NCBI GenBank assembly: GCA_017532425.1 | Contig: JAFXJH010000019.1 | Location: forward strand, 1,029-65,028 | DNA from: Clostridia bacterium | GTDB taxonomy: Bacteria; Bacillota; Clostridia; Oscillospirales; CAG-272 | Direction of reading: 5' to 3' | Length of the DNA stretch: 64,000 nucleotides | Shown here: positions 2,897 through 63,958 of the stretch, one piece after another | Position numbering within the stretch: the first letter of the stretch is position 1 | Layout of the letters: each line of letters starts with the position of its first letter | The notes under the pieces: generated by a model | The model's database searches: none | What the model was told of the DNA's origin: nothing | Seen by the model: only the letters and a program-made list of their open reading frames with translations | Program-made: the position numbers and the translations under genes

Positions 2897-5785
2897 ATGA
2901 AATTAAAACAGCTTATCTGCTTTTCGTGGAATGAAGAGGATAAAGTAAAAGGCTTTCATGTTTTTGCGCAAAGCAAGGGAATAGACGAGCGCGATATATA
3001 CGCGATAGCATCCCGCCTTGCATATCGCCCGTCGGATAATCTTACCTCCGAAACGGTCAAAAATCTTGCTGAAACGTCAAGACTTCTCGGATATCCGAAA
3101 AAAGGCGATAACGGACTTCATTTTGCGGTACAGCGCGAAATAGATTCGACATTCCCTACAGACTGCGCGTTCTTTACACTTCCGTCGGGTCTGCTTTGCT
3201 GTGCAAAGGTTACTTATTGCGGCGTCGATTATCGACTTAACGTATGGGGAAACTATATAATTCACGCGTATATCTTCTCGTATGACCCTAAAATATCCCC
3301 TGCGTCGATACTGCTCTCACAGAAATTCAAAACGCACCTCACGGCAGATGATCTCAAACCGTCAAGAACACAGCCGTATATTCCCGAAATAGAGATAACA
3401 GAGCCGCTCTCTAACGTAGATGCACTTGCGAAGCTTGTAAAAGCAAGAGGCGCGGGTACTCTTTCAAGAATTCTTGACTGCGTTTTTGCCGCAGTAAGAA
3501 GAGATATGGACATATATATAAACGCGCCCGAAAAGGATATCCTCTTCTGGATGCTTGCCTGCGAAACTCTGCTTCCGCACGATATAACGATGCTCCTTTC
3601 CTTCTCGACCTGTCGCTTTTCTCAGGAGGATGGCTCACCATTCAGAATAAAGCATATAATTTCAAAGCTCGGAAGTCATTATGCGTACAAGCTTTCGTCT
3701 TCCGATAACACGCATATATCTATCGACCCCAAAAACGCGATATTCTCGGATAGCGCAAGTAAGCTTCAGCTTTCGGGACTTATCACCTGCTTGCTTCTTA
3801 CTGCACCCGAGGAAATAGAGGTCATACGCTCGCTTATAGGTACTTACGTAAAGACGCACGGTGTAATCGATTCGGACGAGATATGTCTGATATATCGCCT
3901 TGCGCGTACAGATATATACGACGGAATATCCGAAATAGAGCTGTGCGAGACCTTAAAGGACGTCGTTCTTCGCTCGTTCGGATACGATACGGTCGATAAG
4001 GTGATCGAAAAATATCTCGCCACGACGGCGGACGGATCTTTTAAAATAAAGCTCTACGGTCATCTTGCGGCATATCATTCGCGCCCCGAGCAGATAATGA
4101 CGAATATGTTTTACCGTATAATGCGCGAGCTTTCGGACGGTAGGATGACGGCTGCAGAGGCGCTTGATAAGCTCTTTGAAGAGCCGTTTGGAAAAGAAAC
4201 GGTAAAATATATTATAGATACCCTTGACACAAGATACGAGCTCTTTGAGTTCGGAATGTCTGAGGGAACTACAAGAAGCTTTATATATAAGCTGCTTTTC
4301 TCGGGATTTTACGATCTCAAGGAAGAGGGCTCCGCCGATATGCTCATAAGGCTTATACCGGCGGCTGTGAAATATGAATCGGAAAGAGATAACAGCGTTC
4401 CCGAATGTATCACAGAGCTTATCGCGGTGGTTGAATTTGACGAGAGTATATACCGCAGAGTCATATACGGATACTATGATTATTGCCGCTCGGATCTTAA
4501 AGAATTTGTGGGATGGTGCGGACTTATAACTCTTCTTTTCGAGCAGGGAAGAAAGCTCAATTCGGAGGCGGGGATCACCACCTTTATAATAAGAGAGCTT
4601 GAACACGGAAGCCTGCTTGAATATATGAAGACGGGAAGCGAAGAGACGGTGACCGTGCTCACCCTTCTTTCGATGCTTCGCAGATGCGGTGCGCTGTCCG
4701 AAAAGGCTCACGCGAATTTTATATACGATAAATTCAGAGATTTTCTCAGATATTCTGCTGATTGCGACGTGATCTCTCTTGTTATAGACGGTCTGAAAAA
4801 CGAAAATGAAAGACTTGTGGAGGCTCTTTCGCAGTATTCCGGGGCGGATAAGGGTCTTGCGCTTGAGGTTTATAAAAACAAGGTCAGCCGTACACGCTCG
4901 GCAGACAAAAATCTGCTCAGTGCGATGCACGAAAGCGATATACGATATATAGGCGAGTCAATAGTGTCGGCGCGCATAACCTCTTGGGAGAGCTTTATTT
5001 CTTACCTTAAGGATTGGTACGTAAACGGAAAATACAATAAATGCTTCCAGAGAGCGTTCCAAAGAGCATTTTCCGACTGCCTTGAAAATGAAAGCTGGTA
5101 CTTTATAAACGAAGTGTTCTCTATCTGCAAGAGTAGATTTTCGACGTCCGAAAGGGGAGATCTCGATCTTCTGATAAAGATCCTCGATACCAATATCGGC
5201 TCGTATATCGGTAAGGAAACAAATCTTCTTCAGCTGCTTTCGGATATAAAGAAGCTGAGCGGAAGCCTGCCCACGGCATTGGAGCTTGTTATCGAAACAG
5301 AGCTGACACTTATAGGAAAGAGCGATATTTTTCTCCCCGTGTCGATAAGCTTTGTTCAGACGGCAAGCGACACCTTGAAAAATACGTACGTCAAGGTGTA
5401 CGGTACACGCCTTGTAGACCTTTGCGTGGGAGCATCGGACAGCGAAACGATATCCTCGGCTGTATGGCTCGTCGTTCTTGCATCTGACGGAAATACCTTT
5501 GCAAATATCGTGAAATATATCTCGCGCCTTGCGAGCGGATCGGTCAGAATAATACTCGGAAGAGTAATTTCCGCAGGTCTTATAGATGAAGATAAGATAA
5601 AAGTCGAGAATATGATACTCTCTCTGTCGAGGACAATGAAAACGTCAGATTATCTGATGCTTCGAAAGAACGTTTCCTCAAAGCATCAGAATATAAAATA
5701 CGATATAATTTTCGACAGAGTAGAGGAAAGCTTCGGAATTATAGCAAAGCGAAAGCTTGCGCTGATGCGTAAGGATCATAAATGA
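2897..5785 (+). CDS. Large uncharacterised protein (962 aa); the N-terminal ~130 aa resemble a GAP1-N-type domain and the rest looks helical
   Basis: ATG at 2897 is preceded by GGAAAGGAGG (2875-2884); the ORF-track start at 2873 is a TTG inside that RBS. N-terminus: MKLKQLICFSW..KGFHVFAQSKGI..FPTDCAFFTLPSG..YCGVDYRLNVWGNYIIHAYIF. No P-loop, HExxH, DEAD or other catalytic motif was recognised by eye. Confidence 0.6.
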   Translation: MKLKQLICFSWNEEDKVKGFHVFAQSKGIDERDIYAIASRLAYRPSDNLTSETVKNLAETSRLLGYPKKGDNGLHFAVQREIDSTFPTDCAFFTLPSGLLCCAKVTYCGVDYRLNVWGNYIIHAYIFSYDPKISPASILLSQKFKTHLTADDLKPSRTQPYIPEIEITEPLSNVDALAKLVKARGAGTLSRILDCVFAAVRRDMDIYINAPEKDILFWMLACETLLPHDITMLLSFSTCRFSQEDGSPFRIKHIISKLGSHYAYKLSSSDNTHISIDPKNAIFSDSASKLQLSGLITCLLLTAPEEIEVIRSLIGTYVKTHGVIDSDEICLIYRLARTDIYDGISEIELCETLKDVVLRSFGYDTVDKVIEKYLATTADGSFKIKLYGHLAAYHSRPEQIMTNMFYRIMRELSDGRMTAAEALDKLFEEPFGKETVKYIIDTLDTRYELFEFGMSEGTTRSFIYKLLFSGFYDLKEEGSADMLIRLIPAAVKYESERDNSVPECITELIAVVEFDESIYRRVIYGYYDYCRSDLKEFVGWCGLITLLFEQGRKLNSEAGITTFIIRELEHGSLLEYMKTGSEETVTVLTLLSMLRRCGALSEKAHANFIYDKFRDFLRYSADCDVISLVIDGLKNENERLVEALSQYSGADKGLALEVYKNKVSRTRSADKNLLSAMHESDIRYIGESIVSARITSWESFISYLKDWYVNGKYNKCFQRAFQRAFSDCLENESWYFINEVFSICKSRFSTSERGDLDLLIKILDTNIGSYIGKETNLLQLLSDIKKLSGSLPTALELVIETELTLIGKSDIFLPVSISFVQTASDTLKNTYVKVYGTRLVDLCVGASDSETISSAVWLVVLASDGNTFANIVKYISRLASGSVRIILGRVISAGLIDEDKIKVENMILSLSRTMKTSDYLMLRKNVSSKHQNIKYDIIFDRVEESFGIIAKRKLALMRKDHK

Positions 5786-22579: not shown

Positions 22580-22597
22580 GAGAATTTTCAAACAAAA

Positions 22598-22958
22598 CAC
22601 CGTCATATCAAACGATACGACGGTGCGTAGGAAGACAAAATATTTTAGAAAATCCGGTAGCCAAGGAAAGGGGATTGGAGTCTGAGGAAAGGGGAAAAAC
22701 TTCGGCGTTTGAGATGGTTTTTCCCTTTCCTCAGTCAAACAGAACGATTTTGTCTGCATTTTACACCGTCATATCAAACGATATGACGGTACGTACGGAA
22801 GACAAAATATTTTAGAAAATCCGGTAGCCAAGGAATGGGGGTAGGAGTCTGAGAAAAGGGAAAAAACTTCGGCATTTGAGATGGTTTTTCCCATTCCTCA
22901 GTCAAACAGAACGATTTTGTCTACATTTTATACCGTCATATCAAACGATATGACGGTA
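22598..22958. repeat. 166-167-nt structured tandem repeat (2 full units plus a third copy of the leading hairpin)
   Basis: The hairpin ACCGTCATAT-caaacg-ATATGACGGT occurs at 22598-22625, 22765-22790 and 22931-22958. Each unit also has a closing stem AGACAAAAT/ATTTTGTCT and internal GGGAAAAAC/GTTTTTCCC hairpins. Confidence 0.85.
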
Positions 22959-53744: not shown

Positions 53745-54524
53745 ATGGGAAGAATGCTCGGAGCTTTCGATTCGGATAATGACAACGATCGTCCCGATCT
53801 TAATAAATGCCCCGATTGCGGATGCTTTTTCGCGCAGGACAACTGTCCTCTTTGCGGAAAGCTTTGCCCCGAGGAAATGAGAGCGGGCAACCGCAAGGCT
53901 GTAAAGGCAAAGAAAAAAAGAGGCGGATATTCTTCGGGCAGGGTGACCTTTGTCGAGTGGTATCACAGCTGGTGGTTTATCATTCTTATGATGCTCGTTA
54001 TGCCTATCGTGGGTATAATCCTGCTTATCACAAGTCCGCATAAAAAATCGCTCAAGATAGCCCTTATCGCGGTAGCCGTTCTTATAGCTATGCTTCCGAC
54101 GATACTGTTCGCAGTGTACGGCTTTTTGCTTAGTACCTTTGACAGTCCGATCGATACGTCAAAAAGCAGGGAAGAATATATCGAAGCGTGCCAAAGCGTG
54201 GACGCAGAGGAATATTACCGTATGGCGGATACTTATACGGGAAAATTCGTTTCGATAACCCTGAAGATCAAGGAAAAATTCACGGACGGCGATGCTTACA
54301 CGGGTGATAAGTACACTACGCATTACCTTTGCACGGATACGGACGGAAAAGAACTTCGCTTCATAATAAGAGACTGTATTCAGGACGGCTCGCAGAACTT
54401 TATCGCAGGCGACGTTATAACCGTTTACGGCGAGGGTGCGGGAAATTATTCGGTTTACGATGAAAATTACGATCTCCGTAGCGCTCCCGGAATCTTCGTG
54501 GCGTACGTTAAGATCGTGGAATGA
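53745..54524 (+). CDS. Zinc-ribbon membrane protein, unknown function
   Basis: N-terminal CPDCGCFFAQDNCPLCGKLCP, then two TM helices, then an ~130-aa extracytoplasmic domain. Confidence 0.6.
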   Translation: MGRMLGAFDSDNDNDRPDLNKCPDCGCFFAQDNCPLCGKLCPEEMRAGNRKAVKAKKKRGGYSSGRVTFVEWYHSWWFIILMMLVMPIVGIILLITSPHKKSLKIALIAVAVLIAMLPTILFAVYGFLLSTFDSPIDTSKSREEYIEACQSVDAEEYYRMADTYTGKFVSITLKIKEKFTDGDAYTGDKYTTHYLCTDTDGKELRFIIRDCIQDGSQNFIAGDVITVYGEGAGNYSVYDENYDLRSAPGIFVAYVKIVE

Positions 54525-54534
54525 ATTAAGTAAC

Positions 54535-54569
54535 AAAAAACTCTTGGAAACTGTCTTCCAAGAGTTTTT
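54535..54569. terminator. Rho-independent terminator
   Basis: AAAAAA-CTCTTGGAA, loop actgtc, TTCCAAGAG-TTTTT. Confidence 0.8.
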
Positions 54570-54573
54570 CTTT

Positions 54574-54866
54574 GTCGGAAACCCTTTTTTCAAAAAGGGT
54601 TTCCGACACCTTCCCAAAAACTTTACTGAAAAAGAAAGAAGAGACTTTTTTTAAGAAAAGTTTTTGGAGTTCCAAGAACCTTTTTTCAAAAAGCTCCTTT
54701 GCGTTTTTTGCAAAGTTTTTTGGGGAAGATAATCCCCTCTCACCTGCTTCGCAGGAGCTCTCCTGAAGGGAGAGCCTTCAAGTTTTTATTTTCAGCAAAG
54801 TTTTTGGAGTTCCAAGAACCTTTTTTCAAAAAGGTTCTTGGCAGGATCCAAGGACAGAGTCCTTGG
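54574..54866. repeat. Hairpin-module repeat cluster, locus A
   Basis: Perfect hairpins at 54574-54607 (16 bp), 54812-54841 (14 bp) and 54848-54866 (8 bp). An exact 37-nt repeat occurs at 54657-54693 and 54797-54833. Linkers at 54614-54633 and 54789-54807 are inverted copies of each other. Confidence 0.85.
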
Positions 54867-54868
54867 CG

Positions 54869-55963
54869 TTACTTCAGAATTTCAAGTAAGATCTTTGCAG
54901 CTTCGCGCATAGTGAGCTCGCCGTCGGAAATGCCTGATACGCTTATCGATTCCTTGCAGATATACGAAGCCATTTCGAGCGCCTTGGCAGAGGTGAGAAT
55001 ATCGATCTCAGAGTCGGATATTTCGCCGAAAACAGAGATAACGTCGTTCTCGTCGTCGGGAAGAGAAAGTCCGGCGGCAGCCATAGCCATTATGGCAAAT
55101 TCGTCATAGGAAACAGCCTTATCGGGCTCAAAATAGCTGTATTTTCCGATAGTTTTTCCGACGTAGATGCCCTTGTCGGCAAGGAGAAGAGCATCGTATT
55201 TGAATTCGCTTCCGAGGTCAACGTAGCTGATGGTGGGCGCTTTTTTTACGTCAAGCGATACGCTTATGATATCGGACGCGTTGCCGTAGCAGTCGGTCAC
55301 AATATAGGAAAAAGAATCCTCGCCCACGGCGTTTTTGTCGGGAGTATAGACAAATTTTCCGCTTGACGGATCATCGAGAGTGAGCTTCCCGTGAGAGGGG
55401 CGAGATACGATAGAAAAGGTGACGCTGTCGCCGTCGGGGTCGCGCGCGGAGAGATAGTCAATGCGGTCAATTCCCGCGTAGGCGGATACCACCTTCGAGG
55501 ATGCGCTCGGCGCAAAGTTGAGAGTGTCGGTGAATTTTATCGTGCAATCGATAACACGGGGATATCCCGAGGAGATGCATCCGAAAACGAAGGAGGCATC
55601 GTCTACAGACTCGCTTGCAGGGATAAATACCAGCTTTGAGAGCTTGCTTCGGGGGATTATCTGATTTGCAAGGACGGGCACTTTGCCGAGCATAAGCTTT
55701 CCGTCGGCAGAATCGGGAAGAATAAGGATAGTTATGCTGGCAAGACGGGAGCTGCCGATACATTCTTCAAATTCGTCGGTGTCAAAGCTTACTCGGCTTC
55801 CGCGCATGCCGTTTTTGGTGAAGACCGTGTTTTGCGCAAGATTGTCAATAGCGGGTGAAAGACTTTCCTTGGCGTGAGCGGCACACGGGATGATGAGAGC
55901 GCTGAAAATAAGCGAGATAAAAATAATTGAGGTCAGAATTTTGAATAAACGGGATTTTTTCAT
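54869..55963 (-). CDS. Secreted protein with cadherin-like/Ig-like domain and a possible SLH-like C-terminus
   Basis: Signal peptide MKKSRLFKILTSIIFISLIFSALIIPCAAHA. Contains DPDGDSVTFSIVSRPSHGKLTLDDPSSGKFVYTPDKNAVGEDSFSYIVTD. The C-terminal FEPDKAVSYDEFAIMAMAAAGL resembles an SLH motif. Confidence 0.6.
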   Translation of the reverse strand: MKKSRLFKILTSIIFISLIFSALIIPCAAHAKESLSPAIDNLAQNTVFTKNGMRGSRVSFDTDEFEECIGSSRLASITILILPDSADGKLMLGKVPVLANQIIPRSKLSKLVFIPASESVDDASFVFGCISSGYPRVIDCTIKFTDTLNFAPSASSKVVSAYAGIDRIDYLSARDPDGDSVTFSIVSRPSHGKLTLDDPSSGKFVYTPDKNAVGEDSFSYIVTDCYGNASDIISVSLDVKKAPTISYVDLGSEFKYDALLLADKGIYVGKTIGKYSYFEPDKAVSYDEFAIMAMAAAGLSLPDDENDVISVFGEISDSEIDILTSAKALEMASYICKESISVSGISDGELTMREAAKILLEILK

Positions 55964-56147
55964 TTTAAATATTCCTTTCTTTTGGTACTGAAATAATTAT
56001 TGGCAAAATAAGTGAGAAATATTCCCGTGAAGTATAGAAGAAAATATAAATTTGCGGTAAAATAGGGTGTGAGGTTTTTATAAGATAGGTTGTGTAATAA
56101 GTGAAGGACACTTTAATAAAAGCTTTTTGGGGAAAGGAGAGATATCA

Positions 56148-56708
56148 ATGGATAACGGTGCAAGTAGCTACCGCCGTTTCCGTGAAGATGGTGACGAAAG
56201 CGGACTTGAAGAAATAATACGCGATTATAGGGACGGACTTGTCTTTTATCTTAAAAGTATCGTGGGAAATATACACGAAGCGGAGGAGCTTGCAGAGGAT
56301 ACCTTCGTTTTGCTCGGCACGAAAAAGCCGAGAGATAAGGAAATAGGATCTTTTAAGACCTGGCTGTATACGATAGGAAGAAATATCGCTATAAATCATA
56401 TAAGGCGGAAAAAGCGCACGGACACTCTGCCTATTGATGATCTGCCCACACTTGTAAGTGAGGAAAAAGACCTTGAAAAGGCGTATATCAGAGAGGAAAG
56501 AAAGATAAGCGTACATAAAGCGCTGAAAAAACTGAAAACCGAATATCACGAGGTCATATGGCTTGTGTATTTTGAGGGTATGAGTATTAAAGAGACAGCG
56601 GCGATAATGAAAAAATCGGTGCACAATATAGAAACACTTGTTTACCGTGCACGAAAATCGCTGAGATCAGAGCTTGAAAAGGAGGGCTTTGTTTATGAAG
56701 AGCTATGA
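56148..56708 (+). CDS. ECF-type RNA polymerase sigma factor
   Basis: Region 2 is HEAEELAEDTFVLL..FKTWLYTIGRNIAINHIRR. Region 4 is VIWLVYFEGMSIKETAAIMKKSVHNIETLVYRARKSL. ATG at 56148 follows AAAGGAGAG. Confidence 0.85.
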   Translation: MDNGASSYRRFREDGDESGLEEIIRDYRDGLVFYLKSIVGNIHEAEELAEDTFVLLGTKKPRDKEIGSFKTWLYTIGRNIAINHIRRKKRTDTLPIDDLPTLVSEEKDLEKAYIREERKISVHKALKKLKTEYHEVIWLVYFEGMSIKETAAIMKKSVHNIETLVYRARKSLRSELEKEGFVYEEL

Positions 56709-57732
56709 TGAAACAATAAGCGCGGTGCTTGACCGCATAAGAGAAAACAATATCGAAAACCAGCGCAAAAGGAAGATGGCACTAAAGCTGATAACTTCGC
56801 TCGGTTGCTTGTGCCTCGTTGTGGCTGTTTGTGTGGGAGTGTGGAATATTGATTTCTCCGCACTTACGGGGGATGAAAAAACACCTGTGGATGAAAACAT
56901 ACCTAAAGAAGATGTTTTCCTGCTCAGTAACGGATTGTCACCGTCAGAAGACAAGTTGGTCGGATTTTCTATACCTGCAAGCGATTACGGCATAGCCCGT
57001 GCGGCGCACTCGGAAAATATAGTGTTTAGCGAATTAAAGAACAAAGTAAAAACTCCGTTTAAAGGAGCGGGCACTTTTGTTTATCGACATACCGAATGTG
57101 AATATAGAACTATTGGTTCAAAAGAATACGGAGATTTTTACAGTTCTTTTGACATATATATCGAAGAAGAAACTGGAGCTAGAGTTGAGTATTTGCACGG
57201 CACAAATATCATAACGGCTTATAGAAAAGGTAATATAGAAAGACCGCGGGGAGGCGCAACCATTGATGAGAAGCGAGCAAAACAAGCAGCAAAAGAACTT
57301 GTTTTGAAAATAATGACCGAAAAAGAATTTTCCGAATATGATGAAGGAGTATTTTCACCGTATGCCGGAAGCGGTCTGTACGCTGTTCTCTACACACGCT
57401 ACATTAATGGATATGCGACTGATGACAGCATAAATGTAGTTGTAACTCCGGACGGAGAAGCTGTAATGTATAACGGACGTTATGTTGGCAAATATGATAC
57501 TCTTGAATCAAAGCTTACGAAAGAAAAGCTTGATGCAGCTAACGAAAAGCTCAGAACAAAAATAGAAGAAATGAATTTGAAAAATTTGTCTATGGGAATT
57601 TCCCGTATTTTAACGACTATAACAGGTGAAGTTTTTATTAGGATCCCGATAGAATACGATGGTTCAAAAGAACCTCCCGCTGACGTTGTGGTTAGCAAAG
57701 CGACTGCATATGTGTATATAAGTGTAAATTAA
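56695..57732 (+). CDS. Putative anti-sigma factor (single TM, large extracytoplasmic domain)
   Basis: Overlaps the sigma-factor stop codon by 14 nt. It has a short cytoplasmic N-terminus and the TM segment LKLITSLGCLCLVVAVCVGVW. Confidence 0.55.
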   Translation: MKSYDETISAVLDRIRENNIENQRKRKMALKLITSLGCLCLVVAVCVGVWNIDFSALTGDEKTPVDENIPKEDVFLLSNGLSPSEDKLVGFSIPASDYGIARAAHSENIVFSELKNKVKTPFKGAGTFVYRHTECEYRTIGSKEYGDFYSSFDIYIEEETGARVEYLHGTNIITAYRKGNIERPRGGATIDEKRAKQAAKELVLKIMTEKEFSEYDEGVFSPYAGSGLYAVLYTRYINGYATDDSINVVVTPDGEAVMYNGRYVGKYDTLESKLTKEKLDAANEKLRTKIEEMNLKNLSMGISRILTTITGEVFIRIPIEYDGSKEPPADVVVSKATAYVYISVN

Positions 57733-57746
57733 TTTTAATACCCCAC

Positions 57747-57773
57747 CCCCGCGCTACCCGCGCGGGGATTTTT
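57747..57773 (+). terminator. Rho-independent terminator
   Basis: CCCCGCGC, loop taccc, GCGCGGGG, then ATTTTT. Confidence 0.8.
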
Positions 57774-57827
57774 CTGCTCAATCACCAATTTTCTGAATCA
57801 AAAAAACACAAAATTAATAAAAAAGTC

Positions 57828-57856
57828 TTGTAATCGCAAAAGAAGCGTGATATAAT
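57828..57856 (+). promoter_or_regulatory. sigma-A type promoter of ilvE
   Basis: TTGTAA (57828-57833), 17-nt spacer, TATAAT (57851-57856), with extended TG (gtgaTATAAT). Confidence 0.6.
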
Positions 57857-57918
57857 AATTATAATTTTGGATACTTATAGTCGTTTTGCCTTGAGCAGGG
57901 CAAACACAGGAGGTTTTT

Positions 57919-58989
57919 ATGCTTAACATAAGATACGAATACACAACAGAAAAAAAGGTTAAACCCGATTACTCCAAGCTTGGATTTGGTAAGTATTTTA
58001 CAGACCACATGTTTATGATGGATTATACAGAGGGTCAGGGCTGGCACGATGCACGTATAGTTCCTTTCCAGAACCTCTCGCTTTCTCCCGCAACCGCAGT
58101 TTTCCACTACGCGCAGGAAATGTTCGAGGGTCTTAAGGCTTATAAGACAGCAGACGGAAAGATTCAGCTCTTCAGACCTCAGAAGAATATCGAAAGACTT
58201 AACAACACAAACAGACGTATGTGTATCCCCGAGATCGATCCCGATGACGTTCTTCAGGCTATCAAGGCTGTAGTTAAGACGGACGAGGACTGGATCCCCG
58301 AGGAAGAGGGCAAGTCGCTCTATATCAGACCCTTCATTATCGCAACGGACGCTATGCTCGGTGTTCACCCCTCTCATAGCTATCTCTTCTGCATTATTCT
58401 TTCTCCCGTCGGTGCGTACTACGCAACGGGTATCAACCCCGTTAAGATCTACGTTGAGCCCGAATACGTTCGCGCTGTAAAGGGCGGTACGGGATTTGCA
58501 AAGGTCGGCGGTAACTACGCGGCTTCTCTTAAGGGTCAGGAAGTAGCTGAAAAGCTCGGATACGCACAGGTGCTCTGGCTTGACGGTATTCACCATAAGT
58601 ATATAGACGAGGTCGGCGCTATGAACGTCTTCTTCGTTATAGACGGTGAGATCATTACTCCCACACTTGAAAACGGAAATATCCTTCCCGGCGTTACACG
58701 TGACTCGGCTATTCAGCTCCTCAGAAGCTGGGGATATAAGGTAAGCGAAAGACTCCTCTCGATCGATGAGATCCGCGAGGCTGCCGATAACGGCAAGCTC
58801 GACGAGGCTTTCGGTACGGGTACAGCCGCAGTTATCTCTCCTATCGGCGAGCTTAACGAGGCAGGCAAGGTTATGATAATCAACGAAGGCAAGATCGGAC
58901 CGATCTCCCAGCGTCTTTATAATAATCTCACAGGTATTCAGTGGGGTACGGTTGAAGACACAATGGGCTGGACGGTTGCAGTTGACTGA
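57919..58989 (+). CDS. ilvE: Branched-chain amino acid aminotransferase
   Basis: 356 aa, class IV aminotransferase. Contains FTDHMF, FHYAQEMFEGLKAY, GGTGFAKVGGNYA and GVTRDS. Confidence 0.9.
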   Translation: MLNIRYEYTTEKKVKPDYSKLGFGKYFTDHMFMMDYTEGQGWHDARIVPFQNLSLSPATAVFHYAQEMFEGLKAYKTADGKIQLFRPQKNIERLNNTNRRMCIPEIDPDDVLQAIKAVVKTDEDWIPEEEGKSLYIRPFIIATDAMLGVHPSHSYLFCIILSPVGAYYATGINPVKIYVEPEYVRAVKGGTGFAKVGGNYAASLKGQEVAEKLGYAQVLWLDGIHHKYIDEVGAMNVFFVIDGEIITPTLENGNILPGVTRDSAIQLLRSWGYKVSERLLSIDEIREAADNGKLDEAFGTGTAAVISPIGELNEAGKVMIINEGKIGPISQRLYNNLTGIQWGTVEDTMGWTVAVD

Positions 58990-59006
58990 TCTTCGGATTT
59001 TGAATT

Positions 59007-59936
59007 ATGAAGCTTGATATCGGCAAAGAATTTGACGGTATGACCGTGCGCGATTTTCTGACACACGAGCTTCAGCTTTCGCGCAGGTGTATTTCTTCGC
59101 TGAAAAATCACGAAAAGGGAATGGTTCTTAACGGTGACAGAGTTACCGTAAGAGCCCTTCTCTCAAGCGGTGACATTTTGGAGCTCGCTCTTGAGGACGA
59201 AAGCGAGGATATCACCGAGCTGACTCCGGTGAATATACCGATAGAGGTTATATACGAGGATGAAGCCGTGACCGTGGTTAATAAGCCCGCGGGAATGCCG
59301 ACGATACTTTCTCACGGTCATTACGAGGATACTCTGGCAAACGCGCTTGCGTACAGATACCGCGGCAGAGGCTTCGTTATGCGTGCTGTCAACCGACTTG
59401 ACAGAGATACGAGCGGAATATGCCTTGTGGCAAACAGCCGCAGAAGCGCGTATATTCTCTGCGAGCAGATGAAGAGCAGAGAAATGACGAAAAAGTATAT
59501 AGCTCTGCTTGACGGCAGAATAGATGCCGATAATTCAGAAAAGATAATAAAAAACTATATAAAACGTAAAGAAGGAAGCACGATGATGCGCGAAGTTACC
59601 CTTGACCCAAGCGGCGGGGATATTGCCGAAACGCATTATCGCCTTTTTGCGCAGAGCAAAAAATACAGCGCTGTGATAGCAGAGCCGAAAACGGGCAGAA
59701 CTCATCAGCTTCGCGTGCATTTTTCGCATATGGGATATCCGATAGTCGGTGATACTATGTACGGAGAGAAAAGCGAGCTGATAGACCGTCAGGCGCTTCA
59801 CGCCTTTGAGCTGACATTTACTCATCCCTATACGAAGGAAAAAATGACGTTTCGCGCGCCTCTTCCCGAGGATATGCTCGCCGTTATGCGGGACGTTGAG
59901 ATGGATATCGATCTCGCGGAGCTTAAAGCAGAGTGA
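59007..59936 (+). CDS. RluA-family pseudouridine synthase (S4 domain plus catalytic domain)
   Basis: Contains VNRLDRDTSGICLVA and HQLRVHFSHMGYPIVGDTMYG. Confidence 0.9.
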   Translation: MKLDIGKEFDGMTVRDFLTHELQLSRRCISSLKNHEKGMVLNGDRVTVRALLSSGDILELALEDESEDITELTPVNIPIEVIYEDEAVTVVNKPAGMPTILSHGHYEDTLANALAYRYRGRGFVMRAVNRLDRDTSGICLVANSRRSAYILCEQMKSREMTKKYIALLDGRIDADNSEKIIKNYIKRKEGSTMMREVTLDPSGGDIAETHYRLFAQSKKYSAVIAEPKTGRTHQLRVHFSHMGYPIVGDTMYGEKSELIDRQALHAFELTFTHPYTKEKMTFRAPLPEDMLAVMRDVEMDIDLAELKAE

Positions 59937-59980
59937 CGCTTGCAAGCGCTGAAATATCTGTTTGTGAAAGGAATTACCAG

Positions 59981-61174
59981 ATGTCCGAAGAAAAGATAAA
60001 CGACTATCCGAATATAACCGAATGTGAAAATATTTCGGATGAAAACACAGAAGGCGCAAAAAAAGTCAAAAGGAGCTTTCGCGAAGCTTTTTTTAAGTTT
60101 TGTCCGCTTGCTTGCGTAGTCTTTTTCGCTTTGGGCATAATTTCCTTTGCCGTTCATATGATAGCTGTGGCATCCCCCGATTTTGCCGACTTTATTACGA
60201 AATACGTGGCATCGGGCGTGAGATTTACGCTTGCAAAGCTTACCGGATGGATACCATTTTCACTTGCGGAAATGATAATAATAATTCTTCCGCTTATTCT
60301 CGTGGCTCTGATAGTGATCGGCATAAAAGTAGTAAGATCGAATAAAAAGTATGCCTATTCTCGATATATCTGCACGCTTCTTTCGATAATCGTGACCTTT
60401 TACTCGCTTTTCGTCTTCACCCTCGGTACGGGATATCAGGGCAGAACGCTTTATGAAAAGCTGGGCGTTGAGAAGCCGAAATACGAGGATTCCTCCGATC
60501 TTCTCGCGCTTTGCGAATATCTCCGCGATAACGCTAAGGAATGTGCGAAGGATATAACCTTTAATGAGCTCACGGGCTCGGTAATGCCTTATTCGCGCGA
60601 TGAGCTTAACGATCTTTTGAACGATGCCTGCATAAAAGCAGCAGAAAAATACGATTTTATTTCCCCGCTCAGATCAAATTTTAAGCACGTGATACTGAGT
60701 CACTATATGACGTATACTCACATTTCGGGAGTATATACCTACTATACGGGCGAATCGAATATAAATACGAATTTCCCCGATTATACTCTTCCGTATACCG
60801 CGGCGCACGAGATGGCGCATCAACGCGGCATAGCTCCGGAAAACGAAGCTAATTTCGTTGCTTATCTGATATGTATGGAAAGCGATGATAATTATATCAG
60901 ATACAGCGCGTATCTTAATTTGCTCGAATACGTTCAGTCGACTCTTTATAAAGCCGACAAGAGCGCGTACAGCGCATTCTCCTTTACGCTCGGAGAAGAG
61001 ATATATCTCGAATTCCGCGCATATAACGCATTTTTTGACGAATACCGCCAAAACGTAGTTGCGAACGTGAGCCAGGCGGTAAACGATACCTACCTCAAGG
61101 CGCAGGGACAGTCCGCAGGAACGATAAGCTATTCGCTCGTCGTCGGACTCGCCATCGCATATCTCGATTATTGA
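59981..61174 (+). CDS. DUF3810-like membrane zinc-metallopeptidase-like protein
   Basis: HExxH is present in YTAAHEMAHQRGIAPENEANF, with N-terminal TM segments. ATG at 59981 follows GAAAGGA. Confidence 0.65.
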   Translation: MSEEKINDYPNITECENISDENTEGAKKVKRSFREAFFKFCPLACVVFFALGIISFAVHMIAVASPDFADFITKYVASGVRFTLAKLTGWIPFSLAEMIIIILPLILVALIVIGIKVVRSNKKYAYSRYICTLLSIIVTFYSLFVFTLGTGYQGRTLYEKLGVEKPKYEDSSDLLALCEYLRDNAKECAKDITFNELTGSVMPYSRDELNDLLNDACIKAAEKYDFISPLRSNFKHVILSHYMTYTHISGVYTYYTGESNINTNFPDYTLPYTAAHEMAHQRGIAPENEANFVAYLICMESDDNYIRYSAYLNLLEYVQSTLYKADKSAYSAFSFTLGEEIYLEFRAYNAFFDEYRQNVVANVSQAVNDTYLKAQGQSAGTISYSLVVGLAIAYLDY

Positions 61175-61256
61175 AAACAAGTGCCGAAATGACATAAAAG
61201 CCTCGTCGGCATATTATAATATTGATTTAACAACTGTCAAAAGGAATGATCATATA

Positions 61257-62543
61257 ATGGAAAAGATAGTTATTAACGGCTCAAGGCCGCTTAACGGTGA
61301 AATTGAAATAGGCGGAATGAAAAACGGAGCACTTCCGATAATATTCGCCGCACTCCTTGTAACGAAGGGTGTTTCTGTTATAGAAAATCTGCCCGCTGTC
61401 AAGGACATCGATCTTTCTCTTGAAATAATAGAAAGCCTCGGTGCAAAGGTAGACCGCATAGATAAGCATACCGCAAGAATAGACGCAACGTCGGTAAAGG
61501 TGTCCGAGCCTCCGGCATCTCTTGTGAGAAAGATGAGAGCATCCTATTATCTTCTCGGAGCAGAGCTCGGAAGATTCGGTGAGGCTGTCGTTCAGTATCC
61601 GGGCGGATGCGATTTCGGCGGACGTCCGATAGACAGACATATCAAGGGCTTCGAAACCCTCGGTGCAACGGTTACGGAAACCTTCTCTGAAAGCGGAAAA
61701 TGCGTAAGAGCTGTGACCGAGGGCGGTGTTGTCGGAGCAAACGTCTTCTTTGATGACGTTTCGGTCGGTGCAACCATAAACGTAATGCTCGCCGCGGTTA
61801 CCGCCAAGGGTCTTACAATAATTGAAAACGCTGCAAGAGAGCCTCACGTTGTTGACCTTGCAAACTTCCTCAATACCTGCGGCGCAAAGGTAATGGGCGC
61901 GGGTACTCCCACTATAAAGATAACCGGAGTCGATAAAAACGAGCTCCACGGATGTACATATACGGTCGTTCCCGATATGATAGAGGCGGGCACTTATATG
62001 GTGGCAGCCGCCGCAACGGGTGGAAGCGTACTCATAAAGAACGTTATCCCGAAGCACCTTGAAGCAACCTCTACAAAGCTCGCCGAGATGGGCGTTAAGA
62101 TAGTGGAAAATGACGACAGCGTCGAGGTCAGCGTTCCGTCGGGACTTAACGCAACCAATATCAAGACTCTTCCGTATCCGGGTATCCCGACCGATATGCA
62201 GCCTCAGTTCTGCGTGCTTATGTGCGTTGCAAACGGTGTAAGTAAGCTCGTAGAGGGTGTTTTCGACAACAGATTCCAGTACGTCGATCAGCTCAGAAAT
62301 ATGGGTGCTTCCATCGAAGTAAACGGTCGCGTGGCTACTATAAGCGGCGGATCGCCTCTTTACGGCGCAGCTGTCAATGCATCCGACCTCAGAGCGGGCG
62401 CGGCTATGATAATCGCGGGACTTGCCGCTAACGGAAAGACAGAAATTGAAAATATCAATTATATTAACCGCGGTTATGAGGATATAGTTGAAAAGCTTTC
62501 GGCTGTCGGAGCAGATATCGCTCTTGTAAACGTAGAAGACTAA
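61257..62543 (+). CDS. murA: UDP-N-acetylglucosamine 1-carboxyvinyltransferase
   Basis: 428 aa. Contains GGMKNGALPIIFAALL, active-site loop YPGGCDFGGRPIDRH, and PYPGIPTDMQPQF. Confidence 0.95.
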   Translation: MEKIVINGSRPLNGEIEIGGMKNGALPIIFAALLVTKGVSVIENLPAVKDIDLSLEIIESLGAKVDRIDKHTARIDATSVKVSEPPASLVRKMRASYYLLGAELGRFGEAVVQYPGGCDFGGRPIDRHIKGFETLGATVTETFSESGKCVRAVTEGGVVGANVFFDDVSVGATINVMLAAVTAKGLTIIENAAREPHVVDLANFLNTCGAKVMGAGTPTIKITGVDKNELHGCTYTVVPDMIEAGTYMVAAAATGGSVLIKNVIPKHLEATSTKLAEMGVKIVENDDSVEVSVPSGLNATNIKTLPYPGIPTDMQPQFCVLMCVANGVSKLVEGVFDNRFQYVDQLRNMGASIEVNGRVATISGGSPLYGAAVNASDLRAGAAMIIAGLAANGKTEIENINYINRGYEDIVEKLSAVGADIALVNVED

Positions 62544-62572
62544 AAAATCCGGAGCTTGCTCCGGATTTTTTG
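62542..62572 (+). terminator. Rho-independent terminator of murA
   Basis: AAAAAATCCGGAG, loop cttg, CTCCGGATTTTTT. Confidence 0.85.
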
Positions 62573-62576
62573 GCAA

Positions 62577-62863
62577 AGGGAACTTTTTGGAAAAAGTTCC
62601 CTCTGCACACCCTCAAAAACTTTGCTGAAAAGAAGAATTTTAGGGGCGAAATTTATGGGCAGTACCATTAGTTTTTTTCTTTAATAAAGTTTCTTGAAAT
62701 TCCTAGGAACTTTTTGAAAAAAAGTTCCCTCCGGACTCCTTCAAAAGCTTTGCAGAAAAGAAAAAATCATATTGAAGTCTACAAATCGCCCCTTTACTTT
62801 TTGTCTTTCCTTTTGAGAAAAGTTTTTGAAGTTCTTAGAAACTTTTTACAAAAAGTTTCTAAG
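62577..62863. repeat. Hairpin-module repeat cluster, locus B
   Basis: Hairpins at 62577-62602 (12 bp), ~62704-62731 (imperfect) and 62834-62863 (14 bp). The linkers are homologous to those of locus A. Confidence 0.85.
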
Positions 62864-62987
62864 CGGGATCCAAGGGCAGAGCCCTTGGCGGGATTCAAGG
62901 GCAGAGCCCTTGGCGGGATTCAAGGGCAGAGCCCTTGGCGGGATTCAAGGGCAGAGTCCTTGGTGGGTTTCAGGGCAGAGCCCTGAG
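62864..62987 (+). repeat. 25-nt tandem hairpin array (4 full units plus 1 degenerate unit)
   Basis: The unit cgggatTCAAGGGCagaGCCCTTGg occurs at 62864, 62889, 62914 and 62939. A degenerate unit spans 62964-62987. The array ends 2 nt before the GAAAGGA RBS of the next gene. Confidence 0.9.
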
Positions 62988-62998
62988 AAAGGATAAAA

Positions 62999-63958
62999 AT
63001 GAGAACACTTACGGTTAATAAAAACGATGCGGGACAGAGGCTGGATAAATTTCTGTCGAAGGCAGTGCCGACGCTTCCGGGATCGCTGATGTATAAGCTC
63101 ATAAGAACGAAGAAGATAAAGGTCAACAGAAAGCGCACGGAGCATACCTATTTTCTGTGCGAGGGCGATACGGTCGAGCTGTTCATTAAAGAAGAATTTT
63201 TTGAAAATACGGTAGAAACGAGCGCGCTGAAGCTGACACCGCATATAGATATAATATACGAAGACGAAAATATAATGCTCTGCGATAAAAGAGCAGGGAT
63301 GATAGTTCATTCGGACGATAAAGAGAGCACGAATACGCTGATATCGCATATTACGGCGTATCTCTATCAGAAGGGCGAATACGATCCGAATAAAGAAAAC
63401 TCGTTTGCGCCCGCACTGTGTAACAGAATAGACAGAAATACGGGCGGAATAGTTATAGCGGCAAAAAACGCGCAGACCCTTCGTATAATGAACGAAAAGA
63501 TAAAGAACAGAGAACTTAAAAAGAAATATCTTGCCGCGGTTCACGGGATTTTCAAGGAAAAAGAAGGACTTCTGAAGGGATACCTTATAAAAGATCAGAA
63601 AACCAATACGGTAAAGGTATTTGAAGTACAGCCGAAATTCGGCGATGCGAAGAAGATAGTTACGGGATACCGCGTTGTTGCCGAAAAAAACGGTCTTTCG
63701 CTGCTTGAGGTCGACCTCATAACGGGACGTACTCATCAGATAAGAGCTCATATGTCATCGATAGGACATCCGCTGCTTGGCGATGGAAAATACGGCGTAA
63801 ACAGAGAGGATAAGCAGAGCGGATATAAATATCAGGCACTTTATTCGTATTGCCTTGAATTTTGCTTTACGGGTGACTCGGGAATACTTGAATATCTGAA
63901 TGAAAGGAAATTCGAAATAAATGAAGACAAGATCTGGTTTTGCAGAGAATTTCAGTAA
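62999..63958 (+). CDS. RluA-family pseudouridine synthase (S4 domain plus catalytic domain)
   Basis: Contains CNRIDRNTGGIVIAAK and HQIRAHMSSIGHPLLGDGKYG. Confidence 0.9.
   Translation: MRTLTVNKNDAGQRLDKFLSKAVPTLPGSLMYKLIRTKKIKVNRKRTEHTYFLCEGDTVELFIKEEFFENTVETSALKLTPHIDIIYEDENIMLCDKRAGMIVHSDDKESTNTLISHITAYLYQKGEYDPNKENSFAPALCNRIDRNTGGIVIAAKNAQTLRIMNEKIKNRELKKKYLAAVHGIFKEKEGLLKGYLIKDQKTNTVKVFEVQPKFGDAKKIVTGYRVVAEKNGLSLLEVDLITGRTHQIRAHMSSIGHPLLGDGKYGVNREDKQSGYKYQALYSYCLEFCFTGDSGILEYLNERKFEINEDKIWFCREFQ

Follow-up and report, generated by a model that had tools for sequence, protein, structure and literature searches.

Modular palindromic repeats in uncultured Clostridia: a probable REP/BIME-like family whose fold is most likely maintained at the DNA level

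Proteobacterial REP-like repeats have been studied in detail, as have the enzymes that mobilise them. In REPINs, which consist of two REPs in inverted orientation, compensatory changes are frequent (PMC3116915), and REPs that carry a tag form head-to-head and tail-to-tail dimers as well as clusters (PMC3733652). Neither Firmicutes nor Clostridia is mentioned in the 2013 survey of tagged REPs (PMC3733652). Our own search of the literature returned no description of a REP-like family in Clostridia or of the 14-mer core of the repeats described here. The BOX elements of Streptococcus pneumoniae have a fixed module order (boxA-boxB(n)-boxC), fairly constant sequences and predicted stable stem-loops and no known cognate transposase. 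The attC sites of integrons, which are recognised as folded single-stranded DNA, carry the core sites R'' and R' (RYYYAAC / GTTRRRY) at the base of the stem.

The window, by which we mean the whole 64-kb stretch of Clostridia DNA that was analysed, contains two loci, A and B, both intergenic, at which the same short modules recur, and motif scans placed these modules nowhere else in the window. A unit consists of a conserved, AT-rich tag (L) with the core AAAGTTTTTG, often TTTTCAGnAAAGTTTTTG, a linker of 1–14 nt, and a perfect palindrome (H) of 26–36 nt that always has the form arm-CTTTTT-NN-AAAAAG-arm', in which the loop-proximal block is fixed, the outer arms vary freely, and the loop dinucleotide is asymmetric and tracks the side that bears L. 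The stem foot is neighboured by GAGTT, AGGGTT or GGATT on one side and by CGGGAT, CAGGAT or CGTTC on the other. Often there is also a second, GC-rich hairpin (S), whose stems vary yet stay paired (CCAAGGAC, CCAAGGGC, GTAGGGC, CCAGGGAC, GGGGC and TAGGGGT). A unit may stand alone, belong to an inverted doublet (H L+ .. L- H or L- H H L+) or form part of a cluster. They constitute a new family of a known kind of element and not a new RNA gene; with a probability that we put at roughly 60%, they are non-coding, modular palindromic repeats of the REP/BIME kind that are copied as folded DNA by a trans-acting enzyme.

The resemblance to REP, BIME and REPIN sequences extends over several features. Such sequences are extragenic palindromes of approximately 20–40 nt, present many times per genome, which bear a conserved unpaired tag to one side of the stem. 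They, too, may stand alone, in inverted doublets (head-to-head or tail-to-tail) or in mosaic clusters where other short modules are interspersed; they lie at gene 3' ends and beside terminators, vary in their stems in mirrored fashion and are spread unevenly among related genomes. Like them, the Clostridia family has extragenic palindromes in multiple copies and mosaic clusters of mixed orientation, and the inverted doublets that characterise REPINs occur in both of the forms given above, with the stretch 62675–62765 folding as one hairpin. However, the tetranucleotide GTAG or CGTC that marks the foot of the REP stem is absent here; the Clostridia tag is an AT-rich motif of 10–18 nt that lies further out, 1–14 nt from the foot. 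Within the palindrome, it is the loop-proximal T5/A5 block that is conserved, and a single genome of these Clostridia has far more diverse arms than a REPIN population, which centres on a master sequence. Both the tag and the diversity of the arms count against the REP-like reading. The REPIN-RAYT system includes a single-copy Y1 (HUH) transposase gene that has the repeats on either side. No RAYT, other transposase or other candidate enzyme was found for the family by tblastn of approximate IS200, IS608 and RAYT queries against 1.2 Mb of collected DNA, a weak test that speaks neither for nor against such a gene.

Other systems are matched in part. By the description given above, BOX elements are likewise modular intergenic repeats of a Firmicute with one variably tandem module, as S is with its five copies, but the Clostridia family has perfect palindromes with variable arms, and no sequence relationship to BOX is expected. 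MITEs such as Correia, RUP and ERIC have terminal inverted repeats next to a target-site duplication and a parent insertion sequence whose ends are the same. With them the family shares complete elements bounded by inverted tags (62675–62765 in the window and an 82-nt element in L125), a length of approximately 80–130 nt, lack of coding capacity and unrelated flanks. The differences are that most Clostridia copies are half elements and that structural conservation resides in the internal palindromes and not in the termini. No parent insertion sequence was identified. The 82-nt L- H H L+ element occurs in at least three unrelated flanks in viral contigs, and comparison of three flanks shows no target-site duplication. 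Integron attC sites also keep structure while their sequence varies and lie just past gene 3' ends, but the Clostridia units have neither R''/R' core sites at the stem base nor extrahelical bases. An assignment to attC was rejected, as AAC/GTT stands at the loop-proximal end of perfect stems and the neighbours are syntenic housekeeping genes and not cassettes; no integrase was seen.

Locus A lies between the convergent genes 53745..54524 (plus strand) and 54869..55963 (minus strand), and locus B between murA and a gene for an RluA-type pseudouridine synthase that starts at 62999. Each holds three units, oriented -,+,+ (locus A) and -,-,+ (locus B), and forms a mosaic in which L, S and further shared modules stand between the units. 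The six units of the window are divided equally between the strands while the cumulative GC skew climbs over nearly the whole 64 kb, so that there is no replication-strand bias; the nearest relative has two units in 21 kb.

At locus A, a bidirectional terminator hairpin between the convergent genes (54536–54570), which is conserved in the nearest relative (contig L113), lies outside the repeat and is abutted by unit A1 (54573–54632, minus strand, 55.4 bits, z = -5.1). This unit comprises the palindrome TGTCGGAAACCC TTTTTTC AAAAA GGGTTTCCGACA (54573–54608) and a tag in L+ orientation (54615–54632), and with unit A2 it forms an inverted doublet of the type H L+ .. L- H. Unit A2 (54649–54701, plus strand, 55.9 bits) has an L- tag (54649–54666) and a decayed palindrome, CCAAGAACC ... 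CTCCTTTG, with three unpaired positions. It is followed on the plus strand, within 54704–54775, by a degenerate L-like stretch (54704–54721) and two unrelated small hairpins, CCTGC ttc GCAGG (54743–54755) and GCTCTCC tgaa GGAGAGC (54757–54775), the loop of the latter being CACA instead of TGAA in the same-species contig L123. Unit A3 (54789–54866, plus strand, 73.1 bits, z = -6.6) consists of an L- tag (54789–54806), the linker GAGTT, the palindrome CCAAGAACC...GGTTCTTGG (54812–54841) and a hairpin S (54848–54866); a gap of 2 nt separates its end from the stop codon of the minus-strand gene.

At locus B, the canonical intrinsic terminator of murA (62545–62572, plus strand), made up of an A-run, a TCCGGAGC stem with a ttgc loop and a T-run, is again outside the repeat, is the same in L113 and is abutted by the first unit. 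The palindrome of that unit, H-B1 (62577–62602), reads AGGGAAC TTTTT GG AAAAA GTTCCCT and can be extended to 62573–62606 with one G.T/A.C position; its tag, in L+ orientation at 62614–62631 on the plus strand, is CAAAAACTTTGCTGAAAA with 0 mismatches, and the covariance model described below matches 62575–62631 on the minus strand with 64 bits. Within the expanded spacer, Tandem Repeats Finder reports a 13-nt direct repeat in two copies (GAATTTTAGGGGC / GAAATTTATGGGC, 62635–62660, plus strand). The complete L-, H, L+ element at 62675–62765 (44.9 bits) is composed of a degenerate L- (62675–62698), the core of palindrome H-B2 with GGAAC arms (62706–62728) and an L+ with 2 mismatches (62742–62759), and is predicted to fold into a single long hairpin with H at the tip. 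The third unit has the L- tag TTTTGAGAAAAGTTTTTG (62811–62828, plus strand, 1 mismatch) and the palindrome H-B3 (62834–62863), with a covariance-model match of 71.5 bits at 62811–62863. Next to it lies an array of S hairpins, approximately five tandem 25-nt copies of GCGGGATTCAAGGGCAGAGCCCTTG (62863–62987, plus strand; Tandem Repeats Finder period 25, 4.9 copies, 93% matches; fold z = -5.5), in which the last two copies have diverged, one with a G.T pair. The preliminary description gave the first of these copies as the small hairpin and did not list the others or the two palindromes of the same type at 62577–62602 and 62706–62728, which fall in the span that it covered.

That description had set the two loci against each other as copies of the same hairpin modules, and direct reading of the sequence bears out both strings, with the stretch 62811–62890 (unit B) aligned to 54789–54868 (unit A). 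The tags are TTTTCAGCAAAGTTTTTG in unit A and TTTTGAGAAAAGTTTTTG in unit B, and each is followed by a 5-nt linker, a 30-nt perfect palindrome and a 19-nt GC-rich hairpin. The large palindrome is CCAAGAACC-TTTTT-TC-AAAAA-GGTTCTTGG at 54812–54841 and CTTAGAAAC-TTTTT-AC-AAAAA-GTTTCTAAG at 62834–62863, and the three stem differences that had been reported (C-G to T-A, A-T to T-A and C-G to A-T) are all mirrored in the partner arm. The single mirrored change claimed for the small hairpin is present as well, in CCAAGGAC-aga-GTCCTTGG at 54848–54866 compared to CCAAGGGC-aga-GCCCTTGG at 62869–62887, and so is the conserved linker, CAAAAACTTTnCTGAAAA, at 62614–62631 and 54615–54632 and as its reverse complement at 54789–54806 and 62811–62828. 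Were the arms to change independently, three changes in one 9-nt arm would fall on the three partner positions, each with the complementary base, with a probability of approximately 4e-4, the small hairpin left uncounted. The modules are well in excess of expectation in the window, with 6 occurrences of CTTTTTNNAAAAAG against 0.67 expected, 10 of the tag (linker) motif against 0.47 and 17 matches to the small-hairpin motif against 0.82, and the two units fold strongly as single-stranded DNA (z = -5.2 for unit B and -6.6 for unit A).

When genome collections were scanned with the tag, most matches were due to chance, but repeated matches were found in a few MAGs of Oscillospiraceae, Eubacteriales and Clostridia (SIG672, SIG645, SGB_1902, SGB_1465, SGB_6542, SGB_5724 and RGIG6139), where almost every tag precedes a palindrome that has the core in common but differs in its arms. 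The hosts are uncultured Clostridia of gut and rumen. A covariance model built from 20 seed units recovers approximately 46 full units above 44 bits across the collected loci, and a looser pattern adds 29 loci in viral or proviral contigs, which brings the number of distinct units to 55. The viral-contig copies show many new arms, some of them GC-rich (GGGGAGGGG / CCCCTCCCC), together with S hairpins and L- H H L+ doublets; doublets of the type H L+ .. L- H are found at loci L012, L020 and L093 in addition to locus A. The pattern scan returned only four loci from the JGI metagenome collection and zero matches from the plasmid collection and the GenBank phage collection.

The wider alignment allows the covariation first noticed between two units to be measured over the family. 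In the 20 seed units, all 271 of 271 alignment cells of the stem are Watson-Crick, and nine of the 15 pairs change on both sides and none on one side only. Because the seed units had been selected through a perfect-pairing filter, 38 units were also examined that had been located by nothing but the tag and the T-run/A-run core, a choice less subject to bias; they contain 295 Watson-Crick, 5 G.T and 10 other pairs, and their arms extend on average 8 bp past the core. When the 55 distinct units, drawn from viral contigs and from several Clostridia MAGs, are fitted to the structure of the model, 98.6% of 702 cells pair (682 Watson-Crick, 9 G.T, 1 T.G, 2 A.C and 8 others), 188 cells having changed on both sides compared to approximately 10 one-sided G.T changes, and nine of the 13 stem positions use two to four pair types. 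Neither the pairing nor the covariation score observed was attained in any of 500 shuffles, and a shift of the partner by one column lowers pairing to 71–75%. Pairing is thus kept far beyond chance across the family, which means that the copies are not recent duplicates in random drift, the outcome that the preliminary description had named as its own refutation. Its statement that the fold is under selection fares less simply, since pairing is indeed kept but selection is not the sole route to mirrored changes.

Three routes, which do not exclude one another, could keep the arms paired: propagation by a structure-specific enzyme, template switching, and selection on an RNA fold. Mirrored changes are produced by preferential copying of foldable units, as in REPINs (PMC3116915), and by template-switch correction of quasipalindromes (PMC7202029). 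In the mechanism that we propose, the palindromes would extrude as hairpins in single-stranded DNA, where a trans-acting, structure-specific enzyme would recognise hairpin and tag, by analogy with the recognition of REP by RAYT, and copy units into new extragenic sites with a preference for spots beside existing hairpins. Clusters would then enlarge through further insertion and slippage, the latter of which would explain the five tandem S copies. Pairing would persist as only foldable copies propagate and as template switching on quasipalindromes turns a mutation in one arm into a mirrored pair. Read-through from a neighbouring gene would place the hairpins in its 3' untranslated region, as a side effect and not as the reason for their existence.

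The relatives of the window illustrate the turnover of units at orthologous sites. Contigs whose MurA is 85–92% identical at the protein level are perfectly syntenic (uvrA, uvrB, x, Big_9, ilvE-like, rluA-like, DUF3810, murA, rluA-like, lnt), so the same two spacers can be compared. In the window, the murA-rluA spacer is 455 nt long with three units and five S copies, and the spacer of locus A is 344 nt with three units; in the clade L113–L116 (87% nucleotide identity to the window), the corresponding spacers are 106 and 127 nt and hold one unit each. L112 and L117 (81%) retain only degenerate relics in a murA-rluA spacer of approximately 100 nt and the terminator only at locus A, and in L118 (75%) the murA-rluA spacer is reduced to 4 nt, with again the terminator only at locus A. 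The locus B unit of L113 is orthologous to the first unit of the window because terminator and flanks are the same, and the two palindromes differ by three mirrored base-pair changes (AGGGAAC/GTTCCCT compared to AGAAAAC/GTTTTCT, with outer GCA/TGC compared to CCA/TGG). At locus A, the ortholog of unit A3 is present in L113, with shared H arms and with S stems that are different but fully paired. Among the relatives compared there is no clean pair of empty and filled sites with defined ends or target duplications, the spacers that contain no unit being otherwise diverged. Look-up of the 259-aa neighbour protein led to two 1.2-kb contigs of the same species that match locus A nearly base for base, with one hairpin loop differing; exact-sequence look-ups of MurA and the RluA-like protein returned no record.

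A comparison with more distant genomes changes the interpretation of the A/B differences, which had been presented as compensatory swaps between two loci. Units of the window are 87–91% identical to copies in genomes whose genes are too diverged for blastn; with the MAG SIG672, units match at 80–91%, and elsewhere the two share only a 275-nt stretch at 68% identity. Unit A groups with SIG672 locus L083 by its arms (CCAAGAACC) and its linker, GGAG(T/A)T, and unit B groups with SIG672 locus L095 by its arms (CTTAGAAAC), its linker, GAAGTT, and the same free base in the tag. Since SIG672 thus carries both variants with their matching linkers, A and B are two old or horizontally shared subfamilies, and the three swaps separate these subfamilies and did not arise between two loci of this genome.

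The linker does not vary independently of the stem. It is complementary to the 3' arm, i.e., a partial direct copy of the 5' arm, as in the linker/arm combinations gaGGGtt / cttaGGGaac, gGGGGtt / cttaGGGGac, gGAGtt / ccaaGAAcc and gAAGtt / cttaGAAac. The mean energy of the linker-arm duplex is -3.8 kcal/mol, whereas chimeras made by permuting the arms have a mean of -2.15 kcal/mol; 0 of 2000 permutations attained the observed value, in a test uncorrected for shared descent. In the orthologous pair at locus B, the linker has changed alongside the arms (ACCCT in the window and TCTTT in L113). The coupling is unexplained, templated copying being the only mechanism that we can offer. On a more far-reaching view, which we consider unlikely, the repeats would be a third, undescribed superfamily of tagged palindromes, confined to Clostridia and the phages of these bacteria. 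Its stem would co-vary arm with arm and also with the linker, a three-way coupling seen between orthologs too. If it is true, it would imply either guide-like DNA-DNA recognition by a hairpin-specific enzyme or templated copy-correction, and the orientation of the H end toward genes could reflect insertion targeted to gene ends.

Position and orientation relative to genes bear on the proposal that the units are structured RNAs, either cis elements of 3' UTRs (exonuclease barriers, or binding sites for proteins or sRNAs) or small RNA genes, with selection acting on the RNA fold. All units that could be placed are extragenic and adjoin terminators or stop codons (by gene calls for the window and L113 and by rough ORFs for the others), and 30 of 44 are nearest a gene 3' end by rough ORF calls, usually 2–55 nt past the stop codon or just after the terminator. 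Of these 30, 27 turn the H (or S) end toward the gene and the tag away from it, so that an mRNA would read H and then L+; H is likewise on the gene side in 10 of the 14 units that lie closest to a 5' end. This regularity, the strong predicted folds and the strong covariation are what an RNA function would produce, but both orientations are found inside single spacers, and the orientation rule is accounted for by inverted doublets. Doublets of the family are mostly of the type H L+ .. L- H. The most economical view takes as the basic element an inverted doublet that has H at both outer ends and fills the spacer, single units being halves with a decayed partner; a transcription-linked role could also explain the orientation. 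The first murA unit, moreover, sits beyond a canonical terminator, no promoter-like site was found at locus A or locus B, and in relatives whose synteny is identical the corresponding sites hold decayed units or none. Rfam 15 gives 0 matches at the gathering score in the whole window (the best sub-threshold match is PyrR with 41.7 bits compared to a gathering score of 54, and the others are generic hairpin matches) and nothing usable at an E-value threshold on 54450–63100.

The composition of the pairs leads in the same direction. G.T makes up only 1.4% of the stem cells, and RNA helices usually tolerate more. On the strand that runs from L to H, G.T exceeds A.C by 10 to 2 (approximately p = 0.04, with non-independent copies), which hints that one strand matters more and is the sole hint of strand specificity, but the strand with the excess is mostly antisense to the adjacent mRNA. 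The scarcity of wobble pairs, the presence of both orientations in one spacer and the gain or loss of units at orthologous sites thus favour enzymatic propagation and template switching over RNA-fold selection and point to a DNA palindrome. Of the earlier suggestion that an RNA or single-stranded DNA fold is maintained, the maintenance of a fold therefore holds, most likely at the DNA level, and a conserved structured RNA is disfavoured, to the extent that we regard it as distinctly unlikely.

It is also conceivable that the palindromes are passive DNA with no dedicated machinery, spread by recombination, gene conversion and slippage, with template switching to keep the arms perfect. Quasipalindrome correction is an established mutational route (PMC7202029), and several observations agree with it: pairing is strictly Watson-Crick, one-sided changes are lacking in the seed set and few in the large set, the orthologous hairpin of the window and L113 has been altered at three base pairs in concert, the linker co-varies with the arm, and S is tandemly amplified. 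Such processes leave unexplained, however, why the same units of 55–85 nt stand at unrelated sites and in distant genomes at 87–91% identity, and why an invariant tag and the CTTTTT..AAAAAG block accompany arms that vary. We therefore judge it improbable that passive processes account for the family by themselves. A REP/BIME-like family copied by an enzyme would retain template switching as one of the routes by which its arms stay matched.

A function as duplex-DNA sites or insulators for the host, bound by a nucleoid protein, by gyrase as at BIME-2 or by a regulator that reads the tag, or acting as unconventional terminators that protect genes against transcription from outside, is the least probable of the readings that we weighed. 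The tag and the palindrome core are conserved across genera, H ends face genes and L ends face away, and TTTTCAGAAAA in the tag resembles the core of the CodY box. A dimeric DNA-binding protein would conserve the sequence of the arms, though, and not their pairing alone, and the CodY box was rejected as the conserved core, the TTTTCAG half of the tag being unconserved in viral-contig copies and its eighth position being free. As for termination, some alternative pairings followed by T-runs give terminator-like scores at locus A, but locus B has zero terminator-like sites. A hairpin that would instead pair the tag end or linker with the 5' arm is weak and does not covary, its mean of -2.4 kcal/mol being no better than that of permuted chimeras (p = 0.31), and relatives do without units at these sites.

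Among further candidates, intrinsic terminators, in which a T-run comes straight after a G+C-rich stem-loop, were dismissed, with the T-run of the units lying inside the palindrome and followed by CGGGAT or AACCCT, no terminator-like site at locus B and only weak alternative pairings matched at locus A; a CRISPR array, in which unique spacers of similar length stand between direct repeats, was likewise dismissed, given that the S array is head-to-tail with a 25-nt period and has no spacers, and so was pairing of S arms with H arms, which works at locus A only and not at locus B or in L113.

The family also has practical consequences. The strong covariation of the units could pass for that of new structured RNAs in genome scans, and the units break metagenome assemblies, as the same-species contigs L123 and L124 and several MAG contigs end at or inside them. 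Its long AT-rich tag, its dozens of stem variants and its nearly perfect Watson-Crick pairing make it a clean natural data set that can help to tell selection on a DNA fold from template-switch correction, and a search for the mobilising enzyme, if there is one, can begin from it.

The linker that joins the AT-rich tag L to the palindrome H in the repeat units of the L/H/S family is complementary to the 3' arm of the palindrome in all units (e.g., at 54807-54841 and 62829-62863 of the window), and the linker thus repeats part of the 5' arm in direct orientation. The mean energy of the linker/3'-arm duplex is −3.8 kcal/mol, compared with −2.15 kcal/mol in permuted chimeras, and none of 2000 permutations reaches the observed value (in a comparison made without correction for shared descent). 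Between the orthologous units at locus B (the murA-rluA spacer), linker and arm have changed together as well.

In the MAGs SGB_6542 and SIG645, a module tgtaacaaattggggtttgcgaagcaaat lies directly 3' of the 5' arm, replacing the T-run, in two different palindromes (L105, 2201-2250, minus strand; L053, near the unit at 2099, plus strand), and it looks as if another module has been inserted at, or has recombined with, the hairpin tip. Two contigs of a single MAG (L024, 114-167, and L098, 3522-3576) have the unit and the downstream flank (acacatattttcac...) in common and differ in the outer 5' arm, where GTAGGGAAC pairs 2 bases further into the flank and CCAAGGGAAC does not. This difference, of 2 bp only, may reflect variation between strains, with the flank having served as template for a new copy of the arm.

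When the stems of 55 distinct units are aligned (alignment A5) and read on the strand that runs from tag to palindrome, the non-Watson-Crick cells include 10 G.T and 2 A.C. This excess of G.T over A.C hints weakly at a difference between the two strands in folding or mutation. A change confined to a loop is seen in the hairpin GCTCTCC-tgaa-GGAGAGC of the window, whose loop (54764-54767) is CACA on L123, a contig of the same species from another sample, with an identical stem. An ORF of 90 codons that begins with TTG (62714-62986) runs through the array of GC-rich hairpins S at locus B; it consists of the tandem repeat, and it is almost certain that it does not represent a gene.

The tag contains TTTTCAGAAAA (62614-62631, 54789-54806 and other tags), which resembles the CodY-box core (AATTTTCWGAAAATT). 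This motif was rejected as the conserved core of the tag, as the TTTTCAGAAAA half is not conserved in the copies on viral contigs and position 8 of the tag is free.

On a GC-rich viral or proviral contig (L125/L154, 1925-2008), two genes that run in the same direction are separated by a spacer that holds an 82-nt element with the structure AAAAGTTTTTGG-H1-H2-CCAAAAACTTTT. Further loci of this element are L132, L148, L141, L136, L150 and L151; it is found in at least three unrelated flanks, with decayed copies in the close relatives L155 and L156. Elsewhere in the window, a spacer downstream of a small ORF holds a 167-nt tandem repeat (22597-22958; 2.2 copies, 93% identical) with no sequence relationship to the L/H/S family, in which a terminator-like hairpin, ACCGTCATATC aaac GATATGACGGT, is present three times, its copies separated by approximately 140 nt of repeated sequence with a long hairpin of its own.

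The most distant syntenic relative, L118 (75% nucleotide identity), has no units at locus A or locus B. Tag-like motifs are present elsewhere in it (2-60 and 3225-3261), one of them followed by a GGGGC-agc-GCCCC hairpin without the palindrome H. It follows from these motifs in L118 that the L/H/S family, or its relics, predates this group of genomes.
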